54,998 bases of DNA. It comes from a virus. Its lineage: Duplodnaviria; Caudoviricetes. Both the position numbers and the translations under genes were made by a program. The notes under the pieces were generated by a model. It ran no database searches. It was not told where the DNA came from and saw only the letters and a list, made by a program, of their open reading frames with translations. Below, one piece after another: positions 10-50,233 of this stretch; positions within the stretch are counted from its first letter, which is position 1; each line of letters opens with the position of its first letter. Location of the stretch: positions 1-54,998 of the IMG/VR virus record IMGVR_UViG_3300030376_004186. One strand, given 5' to 3'.

Positions 10-318
10 ATGGCAAGTATTATTAAAACAAGTATTAACCTTAACAATATACCTAAAGATAAAATCTTTGTAGGTAAGAAAGGTAAATACTTACCAATTA
101 CAATTACTTTGAATGACGAACTAGATCAGTTCGGTAATCAAGGACCTGTAGTTGTAGAACAAACTAAGGAAGAAAGAGATGCTAAGGCAGCTAAGACTTA
201 TCTTGGTAACGTAAAAGTAGTATGGACAAACGGAACAAACGTTGATACAGCTCCACGTGATGGTGCACCACAACAAACTGCTCCAACTGCTCAACCAGAA
301 GCTGACTTACCATTCTAA
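10..318 (+). CDS. Probable single-stranded DNA-binding protein
   Basis: 102 aa, beta-rich core, Q/P/A-rich linker and acidic C-terminal tail 'EADLPF' typical of SSBs; lies directly upstream of the primase-helicase. Confidence 0.7.
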   Translation: MASIIKTSINLNNIPKDKIFVGKKGKYLPITITLNDELDQFGNQGPVVVEQTKEERDAKAAKTYLGNVKVVWTNGTNVDTAPRDGAPQQTAPTAQPEADLPF

Positions 319-2025
319 ATGAATAGAGAAGAGATCAATGGATTTTTGATTGATAAGTTCAATCAACATAGTCTAAAAGAAGGTGCATCACAGGGGATTT
401 GTCCCCTGTGTTCATCTAGTAGACAACCTAAAAATCAGAAAGCACAATGTGCTTCTTATGATTGGGAACGTGGTCTTGGTACCTGTCACAATTGTGATAC
501 AAGTTTTCAACTACATACTTACCAACGTAAAGGTGCTAGTGAAAAGGTTTATGTTAGACCTGAAACACCAGAACAATTTAACGATGTAAGTACTAATGTT
601 GAGACTTGGTTTGGTACAAGAGGTATATCTAAACAAACACTAAAGGATCTTCAAGTAACAGAAGGTTCTGAGTGGATGCCTCAAACAAGTAAGAACGAAA
701 ATACTATTCAGTTTAATTATTTCATGGGTGATCAGTTGATCAACGTAAAATATAGAGATGGTAGAAAAAATTTCAAGTTATACAAAGGTGCTGAAAAAGT
801 ATTTTACAATATTAATAGTGTTGTAGGATACGATTGGTGTGTTATTGTAGAAGGAGAAATGGATGTACTAGCGTTACACGAAGCTGGTATTACGAATGCA
901 ATATCAGTTCCTAACGGAGCTACATTGAATTCAAACAACTTAGATTATTTAGATAATTGTATTGATTATCTTGAAGATAAGACTAAGATTATAATAGCAG
1001 TAGATGCTGATGAACCTGGTCAAGCTCTTAAAAATGAGTTTGTTCGTAGATTAGGTGCTGAAGTATGCTACTTAGTAGATTTTAATGGTAATAAAGATGC
1101 TAACGAGTATTTAATAGAACACGGTGGTGATAAACTTCGTAATGCTATACACGCATCTAAACAGGTACCATTAGAAAATGTGTCAACCTTATATGATATA
1201 GAAGATGAACTTAAAGATTTTGTTAAGAACGGTTTTAAACCTGGTTTTCAAGTGGGATTATCAAATTTTGATAATATATTTAGCACTTATACTGGTCAGT
1301 TTATTACAGTTACAGGTATACCTAGTTCTGGTAAATCTGACTTTGTAGATCAAATGGTTGTAGGTTATAACAAAAATTATGGATGGAAAACAGCGTTTGC
1401 TTCTCCTGAAAATCAACCTACATATTTACACGCTCACAAATTAATGAGGAAAACGTGGATGGATATGCCATCAGCTGGAGACATTGGAGGTAATAAATGG
1501 AATCAAGTTACAGATCACGTTAATGATAATTATTTCTTTATTGATATGGATAAGTATAATTTAGAATCTGTGCTACGTAAAGGTGCTGAGCTTGTGAAAC
1601 GTAAGGGTATTAAATGTCTTGTTATAGATCCATTTAACAAGGTTAGAGATGTTAATGCGCATTCTGACGACGTAAACCGTTACACGATGGATTATTTGTC
1701 TAAAATTGAAACTTTTTGTAGAAAATATGATGTACTTACTTTTATTGTAGCGCATCCTACTAAAATGTATAAAGGTAATGATGGTAAAATAGAAGAACCT
1801 ACAATGTACAATATTAAGGGTGGTGGTGAATGGTATGATGCTAGTTACCACGGTTTGTTAGTACATAGAGATTACGAAGCTAAAACAACTAAAGTAAAAG
1901 TACTTAAAGTTAAGTTTCAAAATCTTGGTGAAAATGGCGCTGAAGCTCATTTTACTTGGGAACCTAAATCTGGTAGTTTTGTTCCAGAGCAAGTAGTTGA
2001 AGTCGAAGATATGCCGTGGGATTAG
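319..2025 (+). CDS. T7 gp4/Twinkle-like DNA primase-helicase
   Basis: N-terminal Zn finger (CPLC...CHNC), TOPRIM motifs (EGEMD, DAD), SF4 helicase Walker A 'GIPSSGKS', 'LVIDP' and 'VAHP'. Confidence 0.93.
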   Translation: MNREEINGFLIDKFNQHSLKEGASQGICPLCSSSRQPKNQKAQCASYDWERGLGTCHNCDTSFQLHTYQRKGASEKVYVRPETPEQFNDVSTNVETWFGTRGISKQTLKDLQVTEGSEWMPQTSKNENTIQFNYFMGDQLINVKYRDGRKNFKLYKGAEKVFYNINSVVGYDWCVIVEGEMDVLALHEAGITNAISVPNGATLNSNNLDYLDNCIDYLEDKTKIIIAVDADEPGQALKNEFVRRLGAEVCYLVDFNGNKDANEYLIEHGGDKLRNAIHASKQVPLENVSTLYDIEDELKDFVKNGFKPGFQVGLSNFDNIFSTYTGQFITVTGIPSSGKSDFVDQMVVGYNKNYGWKTAFASPENQPTYLHAHKLMRKTWMDMPSAGDIGGNKWNQVTDHVNDNYFFIDMDKYNLESVLRKGAELVKRKGIKCLVIDPFNKVRDVNAHSDDVNRYTMDYLSKIETFCRKYDVLTFIVAHPTKMYKGNDGKIEEPTMYNIKGGGEWYDASYHGLLVHRDYEAKTTKVKVLKVKFQNLGENGAEAHFTWEPKSGSFVPEQVVEVEDMPWD

Positions 2026-2291
2026 GATGGAAAAACTCTAAAAAAACCATAGGTAGAAGTCCTGGTTTTTATTCATATACAAATCAAGATATGAAACATG
2101 CTGGTTGGTGTATTGAAAAGAATATAAAAATAGCAGTTGTACCTAATTGGGAAGGTAGAAACGACGAATGGAAAATTGAATTGAATATTAATAAAAAAAT
2201 ACATATAGATCCTAAGGTATATAAAAGCAAAGAAGCCTTAGCTAAAATGTATGAATATTATAAATACTATTATGACAAATATAGAAACTGA
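2016..2291 (+). CDS. Hypothetical protein
   Basis: 91-aa ORF filling the gap between helicase and next gene; start codon uncertain. Confidence 0.6.
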   Translation: MGLGWKNSKKTIGRSPGFYSYTNQDMKHAGWCIEKNIKIAVVPNWEGRNDEWKIELNINKKIHIDPKVYKSKEALAKMYEYYKYYYDKYRN

Positions 2292-2928
2292 ATTTTATAA
2301 CGCTAATGATGCGTTTGAATACTTTTACAAAACAATAAGTAAACATGGTGTTAGATTTGCTGATACAAGAACTTTGTTTAATATAGGTTTTACAATGCAT
2401 AAACCTCAATTGAATATAATTTCAGATAAGAAACGTAATTGGAATCTTGATTATGCTAAAGCTGAGTGGGACTGGTATTTATCTGGAAACAAGAGTATAC
2501 ATAAACTAGGAGATATATATGGTAAAATTCCACCTATATGGAAACGTATGGCAGACGAAGATGGTAATGTTAACTCTAATTATGGTTGGCAATGGCAACG
2601 TAATCAACAATTAGATTATGTTATTGATAAACTTAAAAAACATAAACATACTAGACACGCTGCGATATCTATATATGACGGTAAAGAACATGATCGATTT
2701 GCTACAGATACACCTTGTACTTACGCGGTACAATTTACAAACGTAGAAAACAGATTAAATATGTGTGTTACGATGCGATCTAACGATCTATGGTATGGTT
2801 TTTGTAACGATCAATACCAATTTAGTAAATTACTAGAATTAGTGTGTGAACAAACAGGTATAGCTATGGGTACATATTACCACTTCGCACATAACTTGCA
2901 TATATATGCAGATAAATTAAACAAATGA
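2272..2928 (+). CDS. Thymidylate synthase-family enzyme, probably dCMP hydroxymethylase/methylase (T4 gp42-like)
   Basis: Catalytic PC (DTPCT), 'NSNYGWQW', 'MRSNDLWYGFCND', 'HNLHIY'; Asp at the nucleotide-specificity position; ATG at 2272 preferred over 2251. Confidence 0.8.
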   Translation: MTNIETEFYNANDAFEYFYKTISKHGVRFADTRTLFNIGFTMHKPQLNIISDKKRNWNLDYAKAEWDWYLSGNKSIHKLGDIYGKIPPIWKRMADEDGNVNSNYGWQWQRNQQLDYVIDKLKKHKHTRHAAISIYDGKEHDRFATDTPCTYAVQFTNVENRLNMCVTMRSNDLWYGFCNDQYQFSKLLELVCEQTGIAMGTYYHFAHNLHIYADKLNK

Positions 2929-3845
2929 AATACTACTATTTATACCACATACCAGGAAAAAAGATCGGTGTAACAACTGACTTAAAAGAAAGGGTAGAAC
3001 GTCAACAAGGTTATGGACCAGGTGAGTACCAGTTATTAATGTCTACTCCAGATATAGATTTTATATCTGAGCAAGAAATAAAATTACAAAAACTCCACGG
3101 TTATAAAGTTGATATGAAATTATATAAAGATTTATATAAAAATAATAATAAACAATTAAATAATATGAAAATAAATGTAACAGAAATGACTACGACATTT
3201 CCCTGTCCAGTCAATAAACTAAAAGGTAGGCTTGTAGATAACACAGGTATGTCTTGGGAAACAGAGCATGGAAATTGTATAATAACAGATAAGTCTATTG
3301 GATGGATAATGGATAACGTTAAAACATCTCAATATACTCAAGATAGGTGTTATATATACAATAAAGCTTTCGCTAGATGGTTTGATAATCACGATGCTTA
3401 CGGTAAACATGGATTAGACAATGCTAAACAAATGAATGACCAATATAATGGTAGAACTAGATCTGGTGCTTTATCTCCATCTGGTATGAACGAAGATTCA
3501 TACGAGTGCTGTGATGAAAACAATCCTTGCGAGTGTAAAGAAAATATACCGCCTTTTACTACATTTGACAATATTAGACAATGGGCTTTTGAAAGAGGTT
3601 TGTACGAAAAGGGTGATGTTAAAACACAAGCTCTTAAACTTGTTGAAGAGGTTGGTGAAACTTGTAGAGCTATATTAAAAGGTAATCACGAAGACGCTGT
3701 AGATGGTATTGGTGATTGCGTAGTTGTGTTAACTAATTTAGCTGAGCTACAAGGCACGTCAATTGAAGATTGTATTGAAGAGGCTTATCATGAGATTAAA
3801 GATAGAACAGGTAAAATGGATAACGGAACATTTAAAAAAGATTAA
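2925..3845 (+). CDS. Fusion of a GIY-YIG-like N-terminal domain and a C-terminal MazG-like nucleotide pyrophosphohydrolase
   Basis: N-terminus 'YYLYHIPGKKIGVTTDLKERVERQ'; C-terminus 'KLVEEVGE...DGIGDCVVVL...CIEEAYHEIKDR' (EExxE/D..D all-alpha NTP-PPase). Confidence 0.75.
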   Translation: MKYYYLYHIPGKKIGVTTDLKERVERQQGYGPGEYQLLMSTPDIDFISEQEIKLQKLHGYKVDMKLYKDLYKNNNKQLNNMKINVTEMTTTFPCPVNKLKGRLVDNTGMSWETEHGNCIITDKSIGWIMDNVKTSQYTQDRCYIYNKAFARWFDNHDAYGKHGLDNAKQMNDQYNGRTRSGALSPSGMNEDSYECCDENNPCECKENIPPFTTFDNIRQWAFERGLYEKGDVKTQALKLVEEVGETCRAILKGNHEDAVDGIGDCVVVLTNLAELQGTSIEDCIEEAYHEIKDRTGKMDNGTFKKD

Positions 3846-3846
3846 T

Positions 3847-4164
3847 ATGAGTGATAGAGAATTATCAGATGCTAAATCAGGTATCACGTCAAGAAAAGAA
3901 TATGGATTTAGAGATCCTGTAGTTAGAAACGTTGTTGATAAGTTTGTTAAACGTTCAGATGTTGGCTATGCTAAGTATGGCTCAACATTAGATGATGAAC
4001 GTAGACTTAAAATGAAAGGATTACAAAAATATCTTAACGATGTTCAAGAAGAGCTTATGGATGCTGTGCTATACATACAAGCCGCGCGTGACGAACTTCA
4101 AGATCTTAATGAAGAATCTTTAATAGATAAATTCAAAGACGATAGATATGAAGAAACGTTTTAA
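3847..4164 (+). CDS. Small all-alpha NTP pyrophosphatase (MazG-like superfamily)
   Basis: 'RSDVGYAKYGSTL...LNDVQEELMDAVLY' motif; ATG at 3847 just after upstream stop preferred over 3763. Confidence 0.6.
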   Translation: MSDRELSDAKSGITSRKEYGFRDPVVRNVVDKFVKRSDVGYAKYGSTLDDERRLKMKGLQKYLNDVQEELMDAVLYIQAARDELQDLNEESLIDKFKDDRYEETF

Positions 4165-4594
4165 AAGAAAAAAAGGTCCTGTCAGAAGTAAAAAAGTTAC
4201 TTTTGATGGGATCAAATTCGCATCAGGTTTAGAGAAGTATATGTATCAAGCTTTAAAAAAGGCTAAGATACATGCTATATATGAAGGAGCAACATTTGTA
4301 CTACAAGAACATTTTATGTTTGATGTAGACTCTTATGAACGACAATCTAATGGAAAAGGTGATATGGTTAATAGAGGTCAAAAAAAGATTCAAAATATTA
4401 AATATACACCTGACTTTGTAAGTGATTCATTCATAATAGAATGTAAGGGTAGAGCAAACGAATCTTTTCCAATTCGTTGGAAAATGTTCAAAAAACATGT
4501 AAAAGTAAACCTACCTCATGTAACTTTATATAAGCCTCAGAACCAAAAAGAATGCGATCTAGTAATTGAATTAATAACTAAAAAATTAAATTAA
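4148..4594 (+). CDS. T7 endonuclease I-like PD-(D/E)XK nuclease / Holliday junction resolvase
   Basis: 'FASGLE...YTPDF...IIECKG' motifs. Confidence 0.8.
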   Translation: MKKRFKRKKGPVRSKKVTFDGIKFASGLEKYMYQALKKAKIHAIYEGATFVLQEHFMFDVDSYERQSNGKGDMVNRGQKKIQNIKYTPDFVSDSFIIECKGRANESFPIRWKMFKKHVKVNLPHVTLYKPQNQKECDLVIELITKKLN

Positions 4595-4726
4595 ATGAAA
4601 GATTGGGAATTCAGTGTAGGGTTCTACCCGGGGATACTATTCGGATTTAGAACTTACACAGAGGTTAATAAACAGAACCATGTATTCTACTTACCGTTTA
4701 TAGATTTTTGTCTAACATATAAATAA
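4595..4726 (+). CDS. Small hypothetical protein (43 aa), absent from the ORF track
   Basis: MKDWEFSVGFYPGILFGFRTYTEVNKQNHVFYLPFIDFCLTYK*; ATG abuts upstream TAA and the ORF fills the gap before nrdJ. Confidence 0.7.
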   Translation: MKDWEFSVGFYPGILFGFRTYTEVNKQNHVFYLPFIDFCLTYK

Positions 4727-4733
4727 AAAATAC

Positions 4734-6596
4734 ATGAGTTTAAATAATAAAATACTATCCGATATAACAGTGCATATGAAGTATGCTAAATTTTTACCAG
4801 AACTTCAAAGAAGAGAAACTTGGGAAGAATTAGTTACTCGTAATAAAGAGATGCACAAGCGCAGGTACCCTGGATTAGTAGACGACATAGAAACGTTTTA
4901 CAGATTTGTTTACAAGAAAAAAGTTTTACCATCTATGAGAAGTTTACAGTTCGGAGGCAAACCCATTGAAATTTCTCCTAATAGACTTTATAACTGTGCT
5001 TTTTTACCTATTGACCATATTGACGCTTTTCCAGAGGTAATGTTCCTATTACTCTCAGGCTGTGGTGTCGGTTATTCTGTGCAAAAGCATAACATAAAAA
5101 AGTTGCCAGAAGTTATAAAACCTCATGACAAGAGAACTAGAAGGTTTGTTATAGGAGATTCAATAGAAGGGTGGTCAGATGCAATAAAAGTTTTAATCAA
5201 GTCTTATTTAGGCTCTAAGAGATCATCTAAGATAAAATTTGATTATTCTGATATTAGACCTAAAGGAGCGCGTCTCGTGACCTCTGGTGGAAAAGCTCCA
5301 GGACCACAACCATTAAAAGAATGTATTGTAAAAATTAAAGGATTATTAGATGGAAAAGAAGACGGAGAAAAATTATCATCAGTGGAAGTCCACGATATCA
5401 TCTGCCACATTGCGGATGCTGTATTGGCTGGGGGAATACGACGTGCCGCACTTATATCGTTATTTTCGGCCTACGACGAAGAAATGATTTCTTGTAAAAC
5501 CGGTAATTGGTGGGAAGAAAATCCACAAAGAGGTAGAGCGAATAATTCAGCGGTTTTAATGAGACATAAAGTTACTAAAGATTTTTTTATGGATCTTTGG
5601 AAGCGAATTGAATTATCTGGATCTGGTGAACCAGGAATATATTTAAATAATGATAAAGATTGGGGGACTAATCCATGTTGTGAAATAGCATTACGTCCGT
5701 TCCAATTTTGTAACTTATGTGAAGTAAATGTTTCAGATGTAGAAACTCAAGAAGAATTAAATAATCGAGTTGCTGCGGCTGCTTTTATAGGAACATTACA
5801 AGCTGGTTACACTGACTTTCATTATCTAAGAGAAGTTTGGCAAGAGACCACTGAAAAAGATGCTCTTATAGGAGTGTCAATGACAGGTATAGCCTCTGGT
5901 AAAGTTCTTGAATTAGATATGGAAGAAGCTGCTGAACATGTAAAAACGATGAATAACATAGTCTCTAAGACTATAGGTATTAAAAAAGCTGCTAGAATGA
6001 CTACGGTTAAACCAGCAGGTACAACGTCTTTAGTGCTTGGAACTTCATCAGGTATACACGCTTGGCACAATAAATACTATATACGTAGAATACGTGTAGG
6101 TAAGAACGAAGCTATTTATAGTTATCTTACCATACATCATCCAGAGTTATTAGAAGATGATTATTTTAGACCACACGATACTGCTATTATTAGTATTCCA
6201 CAGTCAGCACCAAAAGGTTCTATTACTAGAAAAGAATCTGCTTTTGATCTTTTAGAAAGAGTTAAAAAAGTAGCAACTAAATGGGTTAAACCGGGTCACA
6301 GGGTTGGGTCTAATACTCATAACGTTTCAGCTACAATATCTTTAAAAGATAATGATTGGAAAGAAGCTGGTGAATGGATGTGGAAAAACAGAGACCATTA
6401 TAACGGACTTTCCGTTTTACCGTATGATGGTGGTACATATACTCAAGCTCCATTTGAGGATATAACAAAACGGAAATACGACGAAATGACTAAAACCTTA
6501 CATGACGTTAATTTATCAAAAATAATAGAAGTCGAAGATAATACAGACTTATCTGGTGAATTAGCTTGTGCTGGTGGAAGTTGTGAAGTAACTTAA
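4734..6596 (+). CDS. nrdJ: Class II (adenosylcobalamin-dependent) ribonucleotide reductase
   Basis: 'LYNC', 'TNPCCEI', 'TTVKPAGT', C-terminal redox pair 'ACAGGSCEV'; single subunit with no R2 gene nearby. Confidence 0.9.
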   Translation: MSLNNKILSDITVHMKYAKFLPELQRRETWEELVTRNKEMHKRRYPGLVDDIETFYRFVYKKKVLPSMRSLQFGGKPIEISPNRLYNCAFLPIDHIDAFPEVMFLLLSGCGVGYSVQKHNIKKLPEVIKPHDKRTRRFVIGDSIEGWSDAIKVLIKSYLGSKRSSKIKFDYSDIRPKGARLVTSGGKAPGPQPLKECIVKIKGLLDGKEDGEKLSSVEVHDIICHIADAVLAGGIRRAALISLFSAYDEEMISCKTGNWWEENPQRGRANNSAVLMRHKVTKDFFMDLWKRIELSGSGEPGIYLNNDKDWGTNPCCEIALRPFQFCNLCEVNVSDVETQEELNNRVAAAAFIGTLQAGYTDFHYLREVWQETTEKDALIGVSMTGIASGKVLELDMEEAAEHVKTMNNIVSKTIGIKKAARMTTVKPAGTTSLVLGTSSGIHAWHNKYYIRRIRVGKNEAIYSYLTIHHPELLEDDYFRPHDTAIISIPQSAPKGSITRKESAFDLLERVKKVATKWVKPGHRVGSNTHNVSATISLKDNDWKEAGEWMWKNRDHYNGLSVLPYDGGTYTQAPFEDITKRKYDEMTKTLHDVNLSKIIEVEDNTDLSGELACAGGSCEVT

Positions 6597-6617
6597 TTAT
6601 TAACAAAAACAATTATT

Positions 6618-7016
6618 ATGAAAAAACTATTTTTAACGGCAAGTTTCGTTCTTGCTACAATTTTATGTTCTGCGCAGTTTATGGTAGTAACAACTGTAAA
6701 CATGCCAGAAGATAATGCAGAATGGGAGATGTCGAATATCACTGATAATATGGGTGTTGGTTATATATTGAACAATAATATAACTTTAGGGCTTGTAAAA
6801 AACGGTGAGGAGTACGATATGTGGGGTAGATATTATATCAATGATATTTACGCTTCAGTACAAGCTCCAACTGAAGATATGATGGATAATATGATGTTTG
6901 GTGTTGGTTATTCTTTAAAAGTATGGAATGACTTATATGTAGAACCAAATTACATGATGTCTATGAAAGAAGATTCAGAAGGAGAATTTAAATTAGGAAT
7001 ATCTTATAAATTTTAA
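6618..7016 (+). CDS. Small outer-membrane beta-barrel protein with signal peptide
   Basis: 'MKKLFLTASFVLATILCSA|Q' Sec signal, alternating beta strands (MGVGY, FGVGYSL), C-terminal BAM-type signal 'LGISYKF'. Confidence 0.7.
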   Translation: MKKLFLTASFVLATILCSAQFMVVTTVNMPEDNAEWEMSNITDNMGVGYILNNNITLGLVKNGEEYDMWGRYYINDIYASVQAPTEDMMDNMMFGVGYSLKVWNDLYVEPNYMMSMKEDSEGEFKLGISYKF

Positions 7017-7026
7017 ATAAATAAAT

Positions 7027-7227
7027 ATGTACGAAAATAACAATGTAATTAAATTATATCAAAAAATGGGTGAAGAGTTTGAAAGATGTATGCCTGACGC
7101 AGAAAAGTTTGTTGAAGGTAATAACTCAGCAGGAACAAGAGTTAGAAAGTCTATGCAAACTATTAAAAACTTAGCTCAAGAAATTAGAGTTGAAGTTCAA
7201 AACCAAAAGAACAGTGTTGTAGCGTAG
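7027..7227 (+). CDS. Histone H1-like (Hc1-family) small protein
   Basis: 'DAEKFVEGNNSAGTRVRK' resembles the Bacteroidota Hc1 motif GNxxAGTRxRK. Confidence 0.65.
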   Translation: MYENNNVIKLYQKMGEEFERCMPDAEKFVEGNNSAGTRVRKSMQTIKNLAQEIRVEVQNQKNSVVA

Positions 7228-7254
7228 TTTGCTATACACATTGCTCCAAATAAT

Positions 7255-7287
7255 AAAGGGACCGTCGAAAGACGATCCCTTTTTTTT
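7255..7287. terminator. Bidirectional intrinsic terminator between the convergent genome arms
   Basis: AAAGGGA-CCGTC-GAAA-GACG-ATCCCTTTTTTTT hairpin with a T-tract on + and an A-tract on the other side. Confidence 0.85.
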
Positions 7288-7288
7288 A

Positions 7289-10200
7289 TTAATAACCTCC
7301 ACTACCTCCTCCTCCAGGACTTGGTGGTGGTGACGGTGGTGGCGTATAAGTTGTTTCTGGTTCTTCTTCTGGTTCTTCTTCTGGTTCAGTAATTATAGGA
7401 GGTGATATAACTGTAGGAATATCTGGTGTTTCTATTATTTCTGGAATCGGATCAGATAGTAATATATCATTTTCTATATTATCCTCTGTTGTTATTGGAT
7501 AATTAAAAGTTTTTTCTATTTGTATTTCTTCTCCATTATTCCAATCTCCATGAAACTGCGTAACACCCATTTCTAAACCATTAGGCATATAAAATTCTTG
7601 TTCATTAAATTCATGTATATGATAACTTGAGTTCGGACTGTTTTCAATAGCGTCATCTATATTATCATATAATGGATAATAACCTAATATACCAAAAGGA
7701 CCAGTTTTTTTAGGTTTCCTAAGTTCAATAAATTTTTGTCTTTTACTTAATAATCTTTGCTCAAACTCAAGTTTAATAGAATTAGAATCGTTTTCAACGG
7801 GTATTATTAAACTCGAACTACTACCACTGGTTTGACAACAATATCCTGCGGCTACAATTGGTAAAGGAAAATTATTATTTATCACGTTAATAGGAATATT
7901 ATAATTTTGCATACCTTCATATTTAAAACAAATAATGGTACAAGGAACTCCTGTAATTGTATTTCCATTAGAATCAATATAAGAAATTTGCATATTATAC
8001 CCAGAAGTTTGAAATATAAATGTATCTCCAATAGTTAAAGGATTTTGAAACTGTGAAGTTAACCAATCATAAAAAGCAGTGTAATCTTGAATTCCAGGTG
8101 GATTAGAACCAAAAGGCGGAGACGTTACTCCAATAGGATTGTTTTCCATTGCCATAGGCCCGTAAGGTTCACCACCAAACCAAGCGTTAGATGGGGTGTT
8201 CCAAGATCCACCCGCAAACACTCCACATATACTAAAACAATGGTTAACAGAAGCCGCTCCACAAGTTGGTGCGCAATCAGAAAGATTAGCGTGTTGCACA
8301 GCAGTAGAGGGTTGATAAACAAGTAAGTTTGTAATACAAGAATTAACCCAAGTTGGTGGCGCCCAAGTAGAATCACAAGCATGTGCAAATTCATTAGTCC
8401 TTATACTAATCGGGGTAGTTCCAGGTGTGCCTTGTGGATTAGGAAATTGAGCATTACCCCAAAGAAAAGAATTACAACCTGAAATAGAATTATTAATCAT
8501 CTCGTGTTCTACTTTAAAAAACACATGCGTAAGACTTTCTCCCCAATTAGGATCGTCATAAAGTAATTGTGGTATGTTTCCTTCTAAATGCGTAACATTT
8601 TTCAACACCATTAGTATAACCTGACATTGATAAGGATGTGATCCGCTTGGCGTTCCAGGAAGTGTAGAAATACTCTCAATAGTATCATATCTCCATTTAC
8701 CTAAAAATGTATAATCAACATCATATAATGTAAATGTCATACCGGAATCCATATTATTTTGAATATCGCTAGCAGAATAAACATTTCCCATAACGTCTTT
8801 TGTTGGTAACATCACGCCTATATACTCACCACCTATAGAACTATCACTTGCTGGTAAAGTATTTGCGCTTGAGACAGGATTTCCATTTTTATCCCTTAAG
8901 TTAGGTAATGGATTAGTTAAGCTCGAAGTATTGGACGACCAAGTTAATATCATCCCAGAATATCCTGCAATACCAGTATGAAAACCATCTCTATAGTTAT
9001 ACTCTACACAGCTGCAAGTATTTGGAACCATAGGATCTTTACATGGATCTAATGGTTCTACCTCACATTCAAATCTTCTAATTGGACGAACTGATAACGG
9101 ATGACATCTATATGCTAATTTTGGATTGTTAGTGATAGTATCGTATGCATAAGCATATTTATCAGGATCTTGCAATCCAGTACCGTTATCTATGTGTTGT
9201 GAAGAAGTCCAATAAAGATGTTCTGATTTTTGCGTTAAAGGATTAAATGTAATTTGATTTGCCGCGGAAGAACCAGGACCAACATTCGTAAACATTTCTT
9301 TAAATTCCTGTACAGATGGTAAAAACCAATCATTTGTAGTACCATGATTTTTACATACAGTAGCAGCTATATCATGTGTATTTAACCAAGGGTGTGTTCC
9401 ACCTGTAGGTGTTCCAGGGTTCCCAGGAAAAGCGTGTATAATATCTGTGTTATCTAAACCTAAACCAAAATCAAGAGATGTTTGAATTGTAGGTGGTGTA
9501 CCACTGTGCGGTATATCGTAAGCTCCCCATTCAGATCCTTGAAGTCCAAAAGGAGTAAGTCCTGTAGTTCCTGTAAGAGTAATTGATGAAACAGCACTTG
9601 GAGTTAAGTTTCCTAAAGATGGTGATGACAACGACATTTGAGCCGTGAAATACGGTCCAACATTGTTTACCGTAGGGTATGTTGTTGAAGTTATAGTTGT
9701 ATTAGGTGGAAATAATTGATTTCCATTATCGTCTAATCCAGAAACTTCCCATCCCGCGTAATTAATAAAGTTAAAAGATTGATTCCATGGTACTGATACT
9801 GTTCCTATTACTAATGAAAAACTTGGTCCATAATTTATATTAATCACGTTGGATCCTTGAGAAATAGCATTAGGTTGTATAGTTGTAGATATCGGTGTAG
9901 GACTTGTGCACGGTGAAACAACTGTTGTTGTTAAACTAAACTTAAAAGGTAAAGTGTTATTTCCTGATTGATCTAAAGCAGCCGTAAGTTGATCTACTAT
10001 TTTTACAGTAAAAGCTCCATGTCCAGAAGGATGTGTTGATGGTGTTATAGAGAGTATAGTAGTTGTAGATATAGGATTACCAAGAGAATCTGCAAATAAG
10101 TTAGGTGTAATAGCTGCAAGTGTATCACCTACTTGTGGAGGAGGATTAGATCCAACATTTGGATATGGTGGGTTAGGTGTATCATTCCAATAAAACGTAA

Positions 10201-11278
10201 ATTCATTATCATCAAGCATTTGATGAGTAGCTTTTCCATTTGTAACATCATAGGTTACAACTTCATCTCCACAACTAATATTAAAACAACTACTTGGAGT
10301 TGTAGCTGTATCTATATCATTTTGCGCTACCTCGTAATAAATATTAGTAGAAGTGTTAGGACCAACACCAGGCACAGAAAATATAATTCCACCTTCAGGA
10401 CCTATATCGCCTATGTTGTAGCAAGGATTAGGAATAATAGTAGGATCACAGACGCTCCCTGCAACTGCTGTTGCTACCGAACTTAAAGATGCTACAGTAC
10501 CAGCGGCTGTATAAGAATAATCTCCACCTGGAAGCGTTCCGTTTGTTCCAGATATAGGTTGTAATAGTGTTCTCCATGCGAGTTCTTGTGCCGCGGTCGG
10601 TGGAGAGGTTCCAAAATGTGTACGAACAGCATATATATCTATATCATTCATCCACATCCATTGTGCTTGTGTCTCTGTAGATTGTGTTACACAACCTACG
10701 AACGCTGGAGGACCCTGGCAAGCGGCATCTGTTAGAAATATTACAACTCTTTTAAATCCTGATTGTCCAGCTCTATTACCTAAACTACAATTTGCTGTAT
10801 CTGTCACTGCTTTATCAAGATGTGTTTCAGCGGTAATAAGACCTGAAAGTAATTGAGTACTACCAGTCCCAAAAACAGCTTGAGCAACGACATCTAATTC
10901 AACGGGATCGTTACTTAACCATTTATTACTAGATGTTTGGTAAAGAAGAGAACTACCAGGATAAGGTCCAGTTGACCATCTACATATACCCATTTGGAGT
11001 TCACCAGCAATCATATGTGGTGTCCAATGTGTAATTAACGAGCTAATAAAATTATTTTGTGCTTGGGATAAAGGGCTATTCTGAGGATATTGTACACTAC
11101 CTGATACATCAACAGCTACAACTATATCAAACAAACAGTTACCTCCTCCACCACCTAAACGTGCCTTACTATTAATAAAAGCAGAACGTTTAGAATTTAA
11201 AACCTCTGGAATTATTGGTTTTGCTTCTAAAGCTTCTGCTTCTATTTTTTTTATTATTTCTTTTTCGTTATCCGCCAT
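7289..11278 (-). CDS. Large multidomain protein: vWA (MIDAS) domain, DUF1566/C-type-lectin-like domain, Cys/Pro-rich regions; probable virion adhesin
   Basis: 'DIVVAVDVSGS...VIFLTDA'; 'YNIGDIGPEGGIIF...DWFLPS...YWTSSQ...VRPIRRF'; C-terminal 'PPPSPPPSPGGGGSGGY'. Confidence 0.7.
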   Translation of the reverse strand: MADNEKEIIKKIEAEALEAKPIIPEVLNSKRSAFINSKARLGGGGGNCLFDIVVAVDVSGSVQYPQNSPLSQAQNNFISSLITHWTPHMIAGELQMGICRWSTGPYPGSSLLYQTSSNKWLSNDPVELDVVAQAVFGTGSTQLLSGLITAETHLDKAVTDTANCSLGNRAGQSGFKRVVIFLTDAACQGPPAFVGCVTQSTETQAQWMWMNDIDIYAVRTHFGTSPPTAAQELAWRTLLQPISGTNGTLPGGDYSYTAAGTVASLSSVATAVAGSVCDPTIIPNPCYNIGDIGPEGGIIFSVPGVGPNTSTNIYYEVAQNDIDTATTPSSCFNISCGDEVVTYDVTNGKATHQMLDDNEFTFYWNDTPNPPYPNVGSNPPPQVGDTLAAITPNLFADSLGNPISTTTILSITPSTHPSGHGAFTVKIVDQLTAALDQSGNNTLPFKFSLTTTVVSPCTSPTPISTTIQPNAISQGSNVININYGPSFSLVIGTVSVPWNQSFNFINYAGWEVSGLDDNGNQLFPPNTTITSTTYPTVNNVGPYFTAQMSLSSPSLGNLTPSAVSSITLTGTTGLTPFGLQGSEWGAYDIPHSGTPPTIQTSLDFGLGLDNTDIIHAFPGNPGTPTGGTHPWLNTHDIAATVCKNHGTTNDWFLPSVQEFKEMFTNVGPGSSAANQITFNPLTQKSEHLYWTSSQHIDNGTGLQDPDKYAYAYDTITNNPKLAYRCHPLSVRPIRRFECEVEPLDPCKDPMVPNTCSCVEYNYRDGFHTGIAGYSGMILTWSSNTSSLTNPLPNLRDKNGNPVSSANTLPASDSSIGGEYIGVMLPTKDVMGNVYSASDIQNNMDSGMTFTLYDVDYTFLGKWRYDTIESISTLPGTPSGSHPYQCQVILMVLKNVTHLEGNIPQLLYDDPNWGESLTHVFFKVEHEMINNSISGCNSFLWGNAQFPNPQGTPGTTPISIRTNEFAHACDSTWAPPTWVNSCITNLLVYQPSTAVQHANLSDCAPTCGAASVNHCFSICGVFAGGSWNTPSNAWFGGEPYGPMAMENNPIGVTSPPFGSNPPGIQDYTAFYDWLTSQFQNPLTIGDTFIFQTSGYNMQISYIDSNGNTITGVPCTIICFKYEGMQNYNIPINVINNNFPLPIVAAGYCCQTSGSSSSLIIPVENDSNSIKLEFEQRLLSKRQKFIELRKPKKTGPFGILGYYPLYDNIDDAIENSPNSSYHIHEFNEQEFYMPNGLEMGVTQFHGDWNNGEEIQIEKTFNYPITTEDNIENDILLSDPIPEIIETPDIPTVISPPIITEPEEEPEEEPETTYTPPPSPPPSPGGGGSGGY

Positions 11279-15482: not shown

Positions 15483-15851
15483 TTATCTTTTACCGCCATG
15501 ATATTCTGTGGCATGACCTTCGTTAATTAATATTTTGTTTAAACTTTCTAAAGTTAATCTCTCTTGTCCATCTACTACGTCTAACATAATTTCACCTAAA
15601 CACCTTCCAAATTTACCTACACCATGAGAATGCAACTGTATATTATCACAACCTTCTAATAGTTGTTTGACTCTATCTTTAGCAGCTAAACCCTTAGCTT
15701 TTTCTTCTAAGTCTCTAGTTCTAGATTCTGGAGCGTTAATCCCCATAAACCTAACTCTTTTTTTTACTTTGATATCAAAACCTAAATCTATTTCGGCGTC
15801 AATAGTATCTCCATCAACCACTTTTAATAGAGAGATTTTATAAGTATACAT
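15483..15851 (-). CDS. Staphylococcal nuclease (thermonuclease)-like protein
   Basis: 'KVVDGDTID', 'RVRFMGINAPE', 'GKFGRCLG'. Confidence 0.85.
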   Translation of the reverse strand: MYTYKISLLKVVDGDTIDAEIDLGFDIKVKKRVRFMGINAPESRTRDLEEKAKGLAAKDRVKQLLEGCDNIQLHSHGVGKFGRCLGEIMLDVVDGQERLTLESLNKILINEGHATEYHGGKR

Positions 15852-21125: not shown

Positions 21126-24100
21126 TTAATCGTGATAGTAACAATACCCACTTTTAGAGTTTGTTTGCATCTTACATCTTTCTTTATTAGACTTTATCTT
21201 TTTACACTGTTTTTTCTTTCCGTCTTTTCTTTTTTCTACTTTAGTGTGTATTGTACAATAACTACTTCCAGGTTCTACTTCTTTTTTACATCTATTACCA
21301 CTTCCACTTATAGCTGAACAAATCCCATCTTTTTTACTTTTCTTTTTGTTTTCTTTTTCTTTTTCTAAATTTTCTTTTTCTTTTTCTTCTTTTTTAATTT
21401 TATCTTTAGTTTTCTTTTTTATTTTTTTCTCTTTTTTAATTTTTTCTCTAACTTCTTCTACTTCTTTGTCTTCAATACCAACATCCCACTTGTTCCAACC
21501 TAAAGATAAAGCTATTCTTTGCCACCATGCGTTTTCAGAATCTGCAGCACCTCGTAAATTTTGTATTTTTCTATGTAGTCTATTTAAAGGTATATTAGTA
21601 ATTGCCTCTGTGCTATTTGTAACAGCATCCCATAATGGATTATCAATATCAAAAATTTCCATTTCTTTCATGACATCTTTATTCCAATCGGTAGTTCGTT
21701 CCGCACTAACTAATTTTCTAATTTTAATACTTATAGGTGGTGATATCTGTAACAACTCAGGCCAAGCTGGAGATTTAAACCACGAATCACTTTTTTGATT
21801 TTCAACAAACTTTATAACAGTGTTTTTTAAAGTAGATACAACAGCTCCATACACTCCAGTTCCTCTTAATATAGAATCTAAAGTACCGTTAATTACTCTA
21901 TCTCTTTTCTTTTCAAAAAATTCTTCGTCTTGCTCGTCATCATCAAACATCATAGCAAATAAAGCTGTTTGTAGTCCGTAAAATACTATACTTTGAACAA
22001 CTCCATAGTAAATTATTCTAGAAACGTTAGCAGTATCACTTTGTGCTTGAGAAGTATAACCTTTTGATATTCTTCTATTTTTTAAATCAAGCGCTGATTT
22101 TTTCATTATTCTAACGTACTGAGAAGTAACGTTTTGAAAAGCTAATATAAATCTACCTAAAACAGAGGCTTGTTGTTGAGATATCATATCAGGTCTAGCT
22201 GATTGCTGTGTAGCTTCTGCTATTTCTTGAAAATCTATAAAAGCTTTAGCTTCAGCTTCTTTCTTACTTAATCCTTGTTTTAAATATGTGTTAATTCTAT
22301 TTCTTAAAAAACTAGCTCCACCAATTGCGATTGCAAAACTATCACCCATTTGGGTAGGTAAAAAACCTATATTCAATAAGTATCTTATAGCGGCTCTAAC
22401 AGGTTCTTTAGATCCAGAAACTTCTCTAGCTATTTCGTTTGCATTAACATCAAATCCAGCTCCAGTTCTTCTTTGTTTTAAATAATCAGAATTAAATATC
22501 ATTGCAAAGTCTGACCAAAATTGTTTTTGATTAGCAAATCTAGCTGCTGCTTTAAATATATTGTTATCTGCAAAATTCATGAAGTTAACAAAAGAAAGTT
22601 GCTGTAGTATTGCAGATCTAGCGTTAAAGAACATTGTTGCTCCAACAGAACCGTTGATCCAGTCTATCCAAGCATTGACAATTTTGTTCTTACCAGTTGG
22701 TCTATTAGTGCCCTTGGTAACGCTATAAAGCATATCTTTCAAGGCACTTTTAAAGTCCGCTCCGTATATAGCTTCTATTTTATTTAAGTTTTTCTCAGAA
22801 AATATAATTTCAGAGTTTTCTATAAATTCTTGGAAAAATTTAGCTCTACCAATTCTACCTGTAGCGTCTATTAAATCGTATTTTATACCACCTGCATCCC
22901 AATTATCACTAGGTTGTACGTAACCTTTTTCGTCTTTAGATATTCTACCTAGTTTATCTGCAAATTCTTGCATTTCAGGATCAGACTTTACAACTTCTAC
23001 TAAGTTTTTTTGATCTGTTTTTGATATACCTGGAATTTTAAGTCCAAATTTATCCCACAAATAAACTCTTATTGCGTCTTCATTAGTAAAATCACCGTCA
23101 GGTATTTTCTTACCCAACTTCTTACGAACATCAGGCATTGATTTTATTAAAGCTCTATAATCATTTGCTATAGCTTGTTTAGCTGCGTTTAATTCTCTAT
23201 AAGCTCTATTTAAAGGTCTTACTAAAGCTTGTTCAAAAAAGTTTCTATGTTGATTACCTTTTTCACCCCTCCCCATAAAGTTATAAAGTAATCCTATAAA
23301 ATCTTCGTGTGATGGTGGTACAAAAAATCTAAACTTACCCTTACCTTTACCACGTCTTCTAGCTTTAGCTTCAGAAAATCTTTTGTTAGATTCAATACCA
23401 GATACATCTTCTAACACATCGTTAAATTCTTTGTCCATAGACTTACTGAACTTAACTCTAGCTTGTTGCACTTTAGACTTAACATCTATCTGATCTAACA
23501 TGTTTTGTACAGCTTGTACGTTTTGTATTGCATCATCAGCAAAGTAAAAGTCATTATAACCTTCTGCTGCCTTATCTAATACCCATAACGCTTTAGCTTC
23601 CGATGTAGAATTACCTAGTCCAGTAATATTTTCTAATGGTATATTTAAACCATTTTCTTTTAAGAACTTTTGTATTGCAACTGCAGACTCAGCTGGTCTA
23701 GCGGTTAGAATAAACATATTTTTAGTACCAAACTTACTTGCTAACTTTTTAGCTTTATTTAACAATGGCGCTGGTTTACCATCTACAACTTTATTAAATT
23801 CAGAGAAGTCAAACTTATAATCTAATCCTAACAAATCTTGGTATGTACTAGCGTACTGCTCTGGTGTTAAAGTTCCTTCAGTTCCATCTGGTCTAGTAAA
23901 TCTAATTAAAGAACTACTTGTAGCAAGTGTATCATCAAAATCTAATATACTAATACCTTTTGTAGGATTGTTAGTAGATCTAGAAAACTTAGCAACAGTA
24001 TCTATTGTGCTAAGATCTTTAATTCTATTTCTTAAATTATCAGTTAAAGTAAATATACCTTTAGCCTCTTCTTTAATTAAAATATCTAATATATTATCAT

Positions 24101-27100
24101 ACCTATTTATACCACCTTTACTTTTATAGCCTCTTTCAGTAATTTGATTGTCAATATTTTTTGGTAAAACATGAACAAAAGATTTGTTAAACATATTTTC
24201 AACATTTTCTTTAGTCGTGTTTTTATTAATATAATCTATTAAAATATCTACAGTATCGTTAATAGTTATTTCATGTTCTAAGGTTAACTCACTTGATTTT
24301 AAAGTAGAATCTTCATTTAAAGTTATACCAAGTTTAGCTATTTTTCTAATAGCACCTCGTTGGTCATAAGCTATTAGCTGTATCATTGATATTTTCTCAC
24401 CTTTAGTTAAATTAGAATCTAATATTTCAAATACAAAATCTCTAGCTTCTTGAGCTTGTTCGTTTACTTTTTTAACTAAATCAACGTTTTTACGAGCATT
24501 ATTTTTTATATTTTCAATGTTCTCGTATAATTCAACATCTTTAAAAGTTTTACCATCATAACTAAATTGCATTTTAAAACCTTTATCAACTTCTTTTAAT
24601 TTAAAATTGCCATTAAAATTACCTTCTAACAAAGTGTTTAACACGTTGTTTAACAAAAGTTCATTAGTAGTTATATTGAAGACACCAGCTGATCTAGTCG
24701 ATCTAAAAACATTTTTTAGAAATTTATTTATTTCATCAATTTGTTTGTTTTTACCGCTTATTTTAGAGATAGTGTTATTAAGATAATTAACAAACCCTTC
24801 GTGAGCCATCTCTCTTATTTCTGGCATATTAGTGTCTTTAACATCTTTTATTATAGTGTCAATATCTAATATATCTGTAAAATTTATTTCAGCTAACTTA
24901 GTATCTCTTAATTCTACTTCTAAATCAAAAATATATTCTAGTTCTTGTAATATAGTTTTAGTATACTCGTCTTTTTCTATTTTAATTTTTTTATCTAAAA
25001 CTGTAAGAAATTTTCTTTTAGCTTGTCTATCTGTTAAAACATTAGAAAGTTTAATAGTATTTTTTAAAACATTGTACTCTTTTGTAGATCTACTAAATTT
25101 AACATCAACATCTCTACCTATAGCAGCGGATAATTGTTGTATATCGTCTATCGCTAAAGTCTGTCCTTTTATTTCTGCAATATCTTTTCTTAATTCGTTA
25201 ACTTTAGGATCTTTAGCAACTTCCATTGTAGCATCAAAAGATAAAGAACCTGCCATAGCTTTTGCTAAAGCATCTTTTCTAGTTCCTTTTAATCCAGATC
25301 TAACGCCTGTTTTAGGGTTTATAGCTGGTTGATTAAAAAAAGCTACAAATTGTTTTTCTGTAGGTATTATTTTTCTATAAAGTCTTACTGCGTTTCCCTT
25401 ATCTATAACATTTATAGCTTCTTTTGGTAATAAATTTTGTTCAACAGCTGACTCTACATCTGCTTTAGATGTTAGTTCTCTATCAAAAACCGTAAATACT
25501 CTTTCGTTTTCTGGAACCATTTTTTCTAATTGCACTAAATCAGCAGTAAAAATAGCATCTACTATAAATGTTCTATATTTTTTTAAATTATTAATATATT
25601 CTTTAGTACCTAAAAAGTTTTTAATATCTTTAAATAAATAAACAGAAGCTTCGTCTCTTAATTTTCTTTGTATATTTCTTACTGAAGTACCTACTTCATA
25701 AGCCCTTAATAAAGATTTTTTAGCGGTACTTAAAACTTTATTGTATAAATCACTACCTGTTTTTATACCTAGTTGTTGTCTAAATTTAGAATACTGCTTT
25801 TCTTTTGATTTGATTTTTTCTTGTCTTGCCTTTGAAGCTTCGGATATAGACATATCTTCTTGTTCCAAAGCTTCTTGCGCAGATTCATCTGTATCTTCTA
25901 TATCAAAAGTTGTTTCACCTTCTTTAGTCTTTTTAGCAGCGTCTATTCTTTTTGTTTTACCTTCTCTTTTTGCTTCTATTGCCAACTTTTTAGCGGCAAC
26001 TAACTTACCAAACCCAATATTAGCCATTAAAAACTCCCCAACAGTTATTGGTTCACCAGAATCTGTTTTTCTTTTAGCGGCTGGATCGTAATTAATTAAC
26101 CTATCATAAACAGCTTCAATAGTTTCTTGAAACTTTTCTTTACTTAATCCTAAACTTTTAACATAATTATTTATTGCCCCATCTTCTTTTACAATAGAAT
26201 TAAATACATTGTCAAACGGCGAAGGTAAAATTTTAGATTTTCCATCAGCGCCCACTACTTTTTCTTTTGCTCTAAACTCAGCTTGTGTTTTTGCTCCCTT
26301 CTCCATTTTGTTGACAGCGGCTACGGCCTTTGATATAGACATTTTAGCTTCAGCGGTAGTAACTTCTTCACTTGTAACCTCACCTTCAGCAACATCAACT
26401 GCTCTTTGACTAAGTTTACCAGCTTGTATACTTTTTTGGTAATCTTTCATAAAGTTGTAAGTAGCTATACCACTTTCAAATTCTTTATTATATCCAAAAG
26501 CTCTAAATACATTGTGTAGGGTGTTTCTAAGTTGTGTAAAAATACCTTCGTTAAAAGTTAAATCACCTTTTGTTAAACCATCGGAATATATAGTTAACCA
26601 CTCGTCAGTAGTATTTATATCTAACCCCTCACCGTCTTTACCTTCGTTTCTACGATTTATTTCAGCTTCTATATAATTTCTAGATTTTTTAGATATAGTA
26701 TTTTTAAAATCGTTTATAAATTTCTTTTTAACATCTGTATCAAGGTTACTTAAGTGCTTAGTTAATATACCATGTAGTATTTCATGTCCACCAACGTTAA
26801 TTTGACCTGTTTTACCTGCAATGTCTTTATTTATAACTATAGAATCTCCAATAATAAAACCATCAGCACCTTTAACGTTTTTAGCCTTACCTCCTTTTTC
26901 AGCTATTATTTTATCATAAGCTTCTTGGGCCTTATTATCGTTATCTACAACAATAACATCTTTACCTATACGTTTACCTTCGGTTTCTGCAAAAGCAATT
27001 GATTCAGATATATTAAATTGTTCTAAACTTTTTTTAGTTTGTTTTTGAAGTTCAACAACATCTACACCTTCATATTTACTAATAATATCATCAATATTTT

Positions 27101-49958: not shown

Positions 49959-50233
49959 TACTTAGATCTACCTTCTGCGAATCCTTTAAAGACTTTTTCC
50001 TTTCTCTCTTCAGGTGCTTTGCCCTCAAGCAAGTTTTCTTCTTCTTGGATTCTTGTGAGTATTTCAAATGCGTCAAATATAGCTAGTTTTTTAGTAGCCG
50101 CGGCATTTTTTAATCTATCTGCTGATATATCGTCGTCTGAATCTACAATCGGTTCTTTAGCGACTTTAATCAGTTCTTCAACTGCTTTCTGCCCAGCTTG
50201 GATTATATTCTTCTTCGTTTCCTTGGTATTCAT
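49958..50233 (-). CDS. Helical protein, possible terminase small subunit
   Basis: 91 aa, coupled to terL by TAATG; the call rests on position. Confidence 0.5.
   Translation of the reverse strand: MNTKETKKNIIQAGQKAVEELIKVAKEPIVDSDDDISADRLKNAAATKKLAIFDAFEILTRIQEEENLLEGKAPEERKEKVFKGFAEGRSK

Follow-up and report, generated by a model that had tools for sequence, protein, structure and literature searches.

A candidate deoxycytidylate hydroxymethylase encoded beside a MazG fusion protein in an uncultured marine podophage

Is the gene labelled thymidylate synthase in the early operon of an uncultured phage a true thymidylate synthase (ThyA), or does the label hide an enzyme that modifies cytosine? 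The question is raised by an IMG/VR virus record (IMGVR_UViG_3300030376_004186), the whole of which, 54,998 bases, was analyzed and is called the window here; it is estimated to be 91% complete and has a G+C content of 33%. On its plus strand a gene of the thymidylate synthase (TS) family is followed by a gene for a protein of 306 amino acids (aa) that carries a MazG domain, by a gene for a 105-aa protein and by a nuclease gene of the DUF1064 family. The TS-family gene most likely encodes a deoxycytidine monophosphate (dCMP) hydroxymethylase of the T4 gp42 type and not ThyA. Four diagnostic residues, the failure to reach the cut-offs of ThyA equivalog models, a missing C-terminus and the position of the protein in a phylogenetic tree all point to this identity, and they bear out an initial annotation of the window in which such an enzyme had been suspected behind the TS label.

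Identity of the TS-family protein

The protein is 225 aa long, or 218 aa if translation begins at the ATG at 2272, a start used by many of its relatives. We aligned it, using MAFFT, with E. coli K-12 ThyA, T4 gp42 and further named phage enzymes whose sequences come from annotated records. The initial annotation had drawn attention to the segment MRSNDLWYGFCND, in which an Asp lies 11 residues past the Arg; translation of the window reproduces this segment, and in the alignment the Asp shares a column with N177 of E. coli ThyA and D179 of T4 gp42. The T4 strings quoted beside it were recovered as well: in the phmmer alignment to chain 1b49 of the Protein Data Bank (PDB), the T4 deoxycytidylate hydroxymethylase, MRSNDLWYGFCND stands opposite MRSNDVVFGFRND, and a segment of the window protein farther upstream is aligned to EYIQRELEWY...PKIW...GEINSNYGW. 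Compared with E. coli ThyA, whose numbering we use for active-site positions, the window enzyme has the replacements L143 to Asp, H147 to Thr, C168 to Asn and N177 to Asp, all of them as in T4 gp42, and T4 gp42 carries the same residue as the window enzyme at all 12 active-site positions that we surveyed. The T4 enzyme (1b49/1b5d) also has the same fold; it differs in its length of 246 aa and in overall sequence, the BLAST-aligned parts of T4-type gp42 proteins being about 30-33% identical to the window protein.

The 12 positions were surveyed in 200 relatives, made up of 80 open reading frames (ORFs) from IMG/VR loci and the 120 best metagenome proteins. A pattern scan of IMG/VR returned 399 stretches, 397 of which encode TS relatives, and the best 80 were kept for locus counts; the metagenome search for TS relatives gave at least 8,000 scored candidates, all with E <= 0.001. 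All 200 relatives have Asp for L143, Thr for H147 and Asp for N177, and all 200 keep E58, W80, Y94, R166, S167, D169, H207 and Y209; C146 is retained in 199. R126 is likewise kept in all 200, and R127 is replaced by His or Gln. For a pattern held by 199 to 200 of 200 relatives, chance is not an issue. The length of the relatives is 202-246 aa by longest-ORF calls, and 218-230 aa among the 120 database relatives listed.

Published residue rules allow these positions to be read. According to PMC13326640, N177D selects dCMP as the substrate, an acidic residue at the L143 position accompanies hydroxymethyl and not methyl products, and the flavin-dependent 5-hydroxy-dCMP synthases are distinguished by D169N. 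PMC5175136 associates Ser167 and Arg126 with deoxyribose substrates, the cytidine monophosphate enzyme MilA having Ala and Lys. In PMC8670742, positions 177 and 147 are those that best separate TS homologs of modified-cytosine contigs from those of unmodified contigs in sewage and coastal viromes, and Asp177 and a residue other than His at 147 are enriched on environmental phage contigs that were found experimentally to bear modified cytosine. The window enzyme has the TS fold with the catalytic Cys146, Arg166 and Ser167, and it lacks the Asn177 and His147 of ThyA. It carries the residues expected of the gp42 type, namely Asp at N177, an acidic residue at the L143 position and the equivalents of Ser167 and Arg126; the Asn at D169 that is typical of 5-hydroxy-dCMP synthases (RB69 gp48 type) is absent, with Asp in 200 of 200 relatives. 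The control enzymes in the alignment conform to expectation: the uracil hydroxymethylases, SPO1 gp29 and a Kuttervirus enzyme, have Asn177, and the RB69 gp42 homolog has Asn169. Taken together, the published rules would assign the window enzyme to the 5-hydroxymethyl-dCMP synthases.

The top match of the protein in the PDB is the T4 enzyme 1b49 (E 1.4e-15, 60.9 bits). Its match to PF00303 (92.9 bits) spans only positions 33-216 of the 266 positions of the model; the protein ends 8 residues past the His-x-Tyr motif, and the C-terminal 50 residues of ThyA are missing. Against the NCBI ThyA equivalog models the protein reaches at most 72.9 bits, the cut-off being 327, and all cut-offs are missed by more than 100 bits; T4 gp42 scores 48.6 bits on the same models, likewise far under the cut-off. 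The idea that the start of the 306-aa ORF is a frameshifted TS C-terminus was considered and rejected, as the relatives keep a short TS gene and a separate fusion ORF.

The comparison with ThyA, T4 gp42 and other family members that had been proposed for this enzyme places it beside the T4 gp42 clade. In a maximum-likelihood tree (26 rows, 226 of 502 columns kept, the T4 td exon fragment left out), the window clade joins gp42 of Bacteroides phage BF503P2 (support 95/94), and the two together have as their sister the clade that unites Ralstonia phage RsoM2USA, T4 gp42 and Aeromonas phage 25 gp42 (86/82); the support is moderate and the sample small, with several long branches and deeper forks that are unsettled. 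E. coli ThyA, RB69 td and Xp12 fall outside a branch (100/99) that holds the window enzyme and all sampled hydroxymethylases.

The nearest isolate homologs are those of Bacteroides phages, with 47% identity and the annotation deoxycytidylate 5-hydroxymethyltransferase. The closest of them, BF503P2 gp42, is 46.9% identical over 93% of the query and has the same short C-terminus and the same Asp/Asp pattern, its function being an annotated one. Next come the homologs of Lactobacillus phage ATCCB and Enterococcus phage VPE25 (32-34% identity). A beta-glucosyltransferase gene follows the TS-family gene immediately in ATCCB and lies two genes downstream in VPE25, with a dUTPase gene between. BF503P2 has a cluster at 2639-8669 that encodes a carbamoyltransferase, an AAA_28 P-loop protein, a TS paralog, a dUTPase and a second TS paralog, both paralogs having Asp177; the two TS genes bear one identical automatic name. 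These genes set BF503P2 apart from the window, and no MazG domain over the cut-off is found in this phage. A carbamoyltransferase, a P-loop protein and an Asp177 TS are the ingredients of a published 5-carbamoyloxymethyl-cytosine route (PMC8670742), and the BF503P2 cluster looks like such a pathway in a cultured gut phage. The gene context in BF503P2 and VPE25 points to DNA hypermodification.

The MazG fusion protein and the genes downstream of it

The 306-aa ORF (2925-3845, plus strand) overlaps the stop codon of the TS-family gene by ATGA. The AlphaFold model of its product, made with 36 family sequences (mean predicted local distance difference test score, pLDDT, 81.6), shows three ordered parts with disordered linkers between them (see the table). 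The C-terminal part scores 25.5 bits against a cut-off of 22 for Pfam MazG, and MazG and PRA-PH (PF01503) match 36 of 36 family members. In VIA comparisons its four-helix fold resembles that of 1vmg (Z 10.2, root mean square deviation [rmsd] 3.0, 81 residues) and 7ody, the MazG-like enzyme of cyanophage S-2L (Z 9.3, rmsd 2.6 over 90 residues); in Foldseek, mouse dCTPase is just one among many MazG rows, with E about 0.04. E241, E242, E245, D260 and D264 are invariant in the 36 sequences, and we take these acidic residues to be the MazG metal site on the basis of the EExxE...ExxD motif. The S-2L enzyme, MazZ, is a comparable case: this small, all-alpha pyrophosphatase of the MazG type has a nucleotide-modifying enzyme as its genomic neighbor and reportedly supplies the monophosphate substrate in a base-replacement pathway; unlike the window protein, it belongs to a purine (2-aminoadenine) pathway and has no GIY-YIG-like head. 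Judged from the modelled fold and the gene linkage, it is plausible that the MazG domain is a partner of the TS-family enzyme, removing deoxycytidine triphosphate (dCTP) and supplying dCMP.

The initial annotation had described the protein as a GIY-YIG-like::MazG fusion, and the evidence for the head is weaker than for the MazG domain, and consistent. A fold search with the whole 306-aa model returned the MazG domain only, and the N-terminal 160 residues were modelled separately (pLDDT 83.4). Residues 1-63 are modelled as beta-beta-alpha-beta-alpha, and their best VIA match among 48,161 chains is I-TevI (Z 5.9, rmsd 2.9, 59 residues), with further matches to a GIY-YIG endonuclease specific for 5-hydroxymethylcytosine (5hmC; Z 5.2), UvrC (4.8) and T4 EndoII (4.2, rank 6), at values below the Z of 8 under which a match can reflect a common arrangement. 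GIY-YIG entries are 8 of the 50 VIA rows for the N-terminal construct, including the top three. A PDB Foldseek search with the 160-residue model gave nothing at E <= 0.001; in BFVD, names with GIY-YIG or T5 Orf172 occur in 19 of 50 rows, each with E of 0.005-0.2. Pfam T5orf172 is matched by 20 and MUG113 by 17 of the 36 family members at E <= 1, all under the cut-off (T5orf172 scores 13.5 bits against 20 in the window protein, and the best E among the 36 members is 0.0014). Both families belong, we assume, to the GIY-YIG clan, and from the order of secondary structure the invariant Y7, R23 and E51 presumably occupy the places of the first Tyr, the Arg and the Glu of that clan, with K13 at the second Tyr.

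As modelled, the domain would resemble the GIY-YIG nucleases (I-TevI, the UvrC N-domain, T4 EndoII) and T5orf172 in its succession of strands and helices and in the invariant Tyr of strand 1, Arg of helix 1 and Glu of helix 2, and it differs from them in having only 63 residues, KIG in place of YIG and scores below significance thresholds. The label GIY-YIG-like is a fair one for the modelled domain at superfamily level and does not imply nuclease activity; the likeness to EndoII would be one of shared fold only. The proposal that unmodified host DNA is cut as it is by EndoII (DenA) finds no direct evidence in its favor and is speculative: the head is T5orf172-like with Lys where the second catalytic Tyr would be, the likeness is one of fold class, and the nuclease farther downstream is of a common resolvase type. 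For residues 81-160 there was no Pfam match, and VIA gave matches with Z about 3 only.

The 105-aa protein had been read as a second MazG-like pyrophosphatase. Nothing bears this reading out: hhalign against the fusion gave a probability of 1.2%, MazG-superfamily Pfam families matched none of 33 members at E <= 1, the PDB profile search returned nothing relevant, Atlas returned unnamed clusters only, and the protein-collection profile search offered no link. The protein has an invariant R-S..G..KYG segment, a QEELMD segment and only one invariant acidic cluster (E68, E69, D72), compared with the two acidic motifs of MazG. Its PHROG matches are all to families of unknown function, and 120 relatives are listed without a Pfam domain, the named ones nearly all as 'hypothetical protein'. 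The nuclease claimed for the last gene of the module is well founded, with a DUF1064 match far over the cut-off, and the segment TPDF...IIECKG reads by inspection as a PD-(D/E)XK motif. By its family the DUF1064 protein is predicted to be an ordinary recombination or resolution nuclease, common in phage replication modules, and nothing ties it to the discrimination of cytosine DNA.

Of the 80 loci, 79 have the fusion gene after the TS gene, 75 have the 105-aa gene, 75 have DUF1064 and 20 have a class II ribonucleotide reductase gene. One IMG/VR contig of 4.5 kb (L033) is the sole locus of the 80 whose TS gene has no usual neighbor within the contig. In a small sample of records, the TS gene and the fusion are both present in three of three records of this group and both absent from two of two terminase relatives, which may mean only that adjacent genes travel as one block.

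Table. Position and basis of the features in the early operon of the window
Feature	Position	Strand	Basis
Primase-helicase	319..2025	+	phrog_239, E 1.3e-81; Toprim and DnaB_C domains
TS-family protein, 225 aa, candidate dCMP 5-hydroxymethylase	2251..2928	+	Pfam PF00303, E 2.4e-26
MRSNDLWYGFCND: Arg166/Ser167/Asp169 and Asp at the ThyA N177 position	2773..2811	+	exact translation
Short GIY-YIG-superfamily (T5orf172-like) domain, fusion residues 1-63	2925..3113	+	invariant Y7, K13, G15, R23, E51
Conserved alpha/beta domain, fusion residues 81-160	3165..3404	+	pLDDT 84-94 in model
MazG-type all-alpha NTP pyrophosphatase domain, fusion residues 207-306	3543..3845	+	invariant E241, E242, E245, D260, D264
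105-aa conserved helical protein	3847..4164	+	invariant R36, S37, G40, K43, Y44, E68, E69, D72
DUF1064 nuclease, resolvase-type	4148..4594	+	PF06356, E 2.7e-10, 41.1 bits against cut-off 24.7; phrog_190 'Holliday junction resolvase', E 3.7e-12
Class II (B12-dependent) ribonucleotide reductase	4734..6596	+	phrog_367, E 1.1e-133; Pfam RNR-II_ins_dom; supplies deoxynucleoside triphosphates

A proposed route to modified cytosine and its alternatives

We favor, with moderate confidence, a reading in which the genes at 2251-4594 reshape the deoxycytidine pool through a 5-hydroxymethyl-dCMP synthase, dCTP hydrolysis by MazG, and the kinases and replisome of the host. In the first step the TS-family enzyme, with the thiol equivalent to Cys146 and methylene-tetrahydrofolate, would transfer a one-carbon unit to C5 of dCMP; Asp for N177 would select cytosine, and Asp for L143 together with the missing C-terminal lid would let water, and not hydride, resolve the intermediate to give 5-hydroxymethyl-dCMP. 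In the second step the MazG domain of the fusion would hydrolyze dCTP to dCMP and pyrophosphate, feeding the first step and removing the competing canonical triphosphate. In the third step host kinases and the host replisome would convert and incorporate the product, a part given to the host because no phage kinase for deoxynucleoside monophosphates (dNMPs) and no phage DNA polymerase is recognizable. The first step is read from residues, tree and literature rules, and the second from fold and gene linkage only. The phage DNA probably holds modified cytosine. The parallel with the T4 pathway drawn in the initial annotation holds for the gp42-type enzyme and is otherwise incomplete, as the window genome has no recognizable gp1-type kinase, glucosyltransferase, dUTPase_2-type dCTPase or phage DNA polymerase; T4 gp56 belongs to PF08761 (dUTPase_2), and the fusion carries a MazG-family domain instead.

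Several observations weigh against this reading, every functional step of which is one that we infer. Its main weakness is that, with no kinase or polymerase in sight, 5-hydroxymethyl-dCMP must enter DNA by way of host enzymes or unrecognized phage proteins. The T4 gp1 protein and PF21448, its kinase family, were each found in none of five records, among them the window and relatives that are 97% and 100% complete; the thymidylate-kinase family was not found in the window or the relatives searched, and a Walker A scan gave three matches, in the helicase, a virion structural ORF and a lysis ORF, with no convincing extra kinase. BF503P2 and VPE25 lack the gp1 kinase family too, so that its absence alone does not exclude modification. 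Pfam scans, which covered part of the relative's ORFs, gave no glycosyltransferase. Five records of this phage lineage (the window, the relatives G001 and G002, NC_055853.1 and MW202828.1) gave no match to family A or B DNA polymerases, though a primase-helicase is encoded in them. Four-base palindromes are under-represented in the window (observed/expected ratio under a maximal-order Markov model: TCGA 0.56, CATG 0.72, CTAG 0.75, ACGT 0.77), and GGCC, GCGC and AGCT are not; depletion of palindromes that contain C is not predicted by full protective modification, though such palindrome statistics are too weak a test to be decisive. As to the enzymes themselves, bacterial ThyA is a close second in the PDB search (E 1.6e-14, 57.4 bits compared with 60.9), so that whole-sequence scores alone cannot decide between dCMP hydroxymethylase and ThyA. 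Xp12, presumably a 5-methylcytosine (5mC) phage, combines Asp177 with Asn, and not a hydrophobic residue, at position 143, which shows that the L143 rule is not strict. The fusion has no specific link to T4 gp56 (hhalign probability 1.75%). None of five isolate phages that carry an Asp177 enzyme has a MazG domain over the cut-off, and MazG as a single domain often occurs in phages that lack such an enzyme, so that dCTP is at most a candidate substrate.

This last point bears on an appreciable possibility, on the unlikely side in our view, that the fusion serves as a general pyrophosphatase, of a house-cleaning or pool-skewing kind, whose head binds or cuts DNA, and that operon packing and not a partnership in dCTP removal accounts for its place beside the TS gene. 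Matches to the MazG domain occur in over 1,100 phage records, the majority of them from groups not known for cytosine modification, and the domain offers no readable substrate determinant. Against such a general role stands the linkage of the two genes, in 79 of 80 loci and with joint presence or absence in five of five records, subject to the block transfer mentioned above. A further argument comes from the MetaGPA study (PMC8670742), in which TS co-occurs with the MazG-superfamily family PF01503 (PRA-PH) on modified-cytosine contigs; the Pfam pair is the same as here, PF00303 with Asp177 and non-His147 together with PF01503, and the difference is that the study reports statistics over sewage and coastal viromes. 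DNA ligase is another associated domain in that study, and upstream in relatives of the window lie genes for a ligase, a sigma-like protein, an ERF recombinase and an exonuclease.

It is unlikely, though worth weighing, that 5-hydroxymethyl-dCMP is made and not used for bulk replacement of cytosine, being incorporated in part only, or that the TS and MazG pair serves mainly to drain the dCTP of the host. The lack of a dNMP kinase family, an extra P-loop protein, a phage DNA polymerase and, in the scanned ORFs, a glycosyltransferase would fit such partial use, as would the scarcity of C-containing palindromes, and in a published in vivo assay, TS homologs without their kinase left no more than a trace of product in DNA (PMC13326640). 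The T4-type kinase family is missing, however, from BF503P2 and VPE25 as well, where the gene context indicates hypermodification; Asp177 enzymes are statistically tied to modified-cytosine contigs in PMC8670742, and the strict conservation of the active site in 200 relatives argues for a selected function. At the other extreme, we regard as doubtful the full scenario of a polymerase-less, globally abundant marine lineage that replaces cytosine with 5hmC by a minimal two-gene cassette, with a C-terminally truncated gp42-type hydroxymethylase, working through host replisome and kinases, and whose tri-domain protein couples dCTP removal by MazG to GIY-YIG-like recognition or cleavage of unmodified DNA, so that dCTPase and an EndoII-like activity would share a single polypeptide.

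The remaining alternatives concern the product of the TS-family enzyme. That it is a dCMP methyltransferase producing 5-methyl-dCMP, as in Xanthomonas phage Xp12, would agree with Asp at N177, which fits any member that uses dCMP, and with the methylation of dCMP by E. coli ThyA N177D that is cited in PMC8670742; the initial annotation had likewise allowed for 5mC. We nevertheless judge it very unlikely, since Asp at L143 goes with hydroxymethyl products, the ThyA C-terminal segment is missing, and Xp12 lies outside the 100/99 branch of the window enzyme and the sampled hydroxymethylases; 5mC is less likely than 5hmC in this phage. A uracil substrate, for a true thymidylate synthase or a deoxyuridine monophosphate (dUMP) hydroxymethylase, is highly improbable: Pfam and PHROG do name the protein thymidylate synthase and ThyA chains score nearly as high in the PDB, but Asp177 is found in 200 of 200 relatives where the sampled dUMP hydroxymethylases (SPO1 gp29, Sa157lw) have Asn, and the ThyA cut-offs are missed by the wide distance given above. 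A flavin-dependent 5-hydroxy-dCMP synthase of the RB69 gp48 type, which would share Asp177, the acidic residue at 143 and the short C-terminus of the RB69 homolog, is barely credible given Asp169 in place of Asn in all 200 relatives and no arabinosyl or glycosyl transferase genes in the scanned ORFs.

Genome setting and significance

The window is the nearly complete genome of an uncultured marine podophage, with packaging genes similar to the ones found in Flavobacterium and Cellulophaga phages. The terminase shares 65% identity with its counterpart in an uncultured podovirus genome and 46% with the terminases of Flavobacterium elemo phages, and it also matches those of Cellulophaga, Tenacibaculum and Maribacter phages. 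The sequencing runs that contain the window are marine metagenomes, available as assembled contigs and not as raw long reads; a nucleotide search with window positions 2000-7000 against phage isolates gave no match.

The plus-strand block at 10-7227 is an operon for replication and nucleotide metabolism. Its order is a 102-aa protein, the primase-helicase, a small ORF, the TS-family gene, the 306-aa MazG fusion, the 105-aa protein, DUF1064, a 43-aa ORF, the class II ribonucleotide reductase and an Hc1-like protein; the primase-helicase upstream places the TS/MazG module in a replication operon. The 102-aa protein (10-318, plus strand), directly upstream of the primase-helicase, has an acidic C-terminal tail, ...EADLPF, that resembles the C-terminal tip of bacterial single-stranded DNA-binding (SSB) proteins, and the one family it matches is a PHROG without assigned function. 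A role as a phage SSB that brings in parts of the host replisome is conceivable and would agree with the lack of a phage DNA polymerase. The operon is closed by a 66-aa histone H1-like Hc1 protein (7027-7227, plus strand; PF07432, E 9.5e-20).

The remainder of the window is a minus-strand block of structural, lysis and chaperonin genes. A GroEL/GroES pair is encoded at 53793-54917 and 53549-53806 (both minus), as it is in the relative G001 and in Flavobacterium elemo phages, and another minus-strand ORF (50178-50768) matches a PHROG labelled co-chaperonin GroES. Three giant ORFs lie on the same strand, at 21126-28388 (2420 aa), 33279-39209 (1976 aa) and 7289-11278 (1329 aa): PHROG matches are to a virion structural family for the 1976-aa ORF and to a family of unknown function for the N-terminal part of the 2420-aa ORF, the 1329-aa ORF having none. 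A staphylococcal-nuclease homolog in this late block (15483-15851, minus; PF00565, E 3.7e-9; phrog_452 endonuclease) is an additional candidate for DNA degradation that the initial annotation did not include.

The kind of system proposed here is known, and the association of TS and the MazG superfamily with modified cytosine is published; the gain is one of scope and not of concept. New are the phage group, the truncated form of the enzyme, the tri-domain fusion and the apparent lack of kinase and polymerase. Among the papers listed in literature searches on the pairing of TS and MazG in marine or Flavobacteriia phages, none deals with this phage group, which is not proof of its absence from print. 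The TS-family gene also illustrates that 'thymidylate synthase' labels in viromes hide cytosine-modifying enzymes, and four residues suffice for their re-annotation. Should the enzyme prove to be a dCMP hydroxymethylase, DNA of the 5hmC type would be carried by uncultured marine phages of a widespread group, and this would bear on host range and restriction biology in marine Flavobacteriia as well as on native long-read sequencing and enzymatic library preparation of such genomes. With no recognizable kinase or polymerase of its own, the group may offer a minimal model for the way in which modified dNMPs reach DNA through host enzymes.

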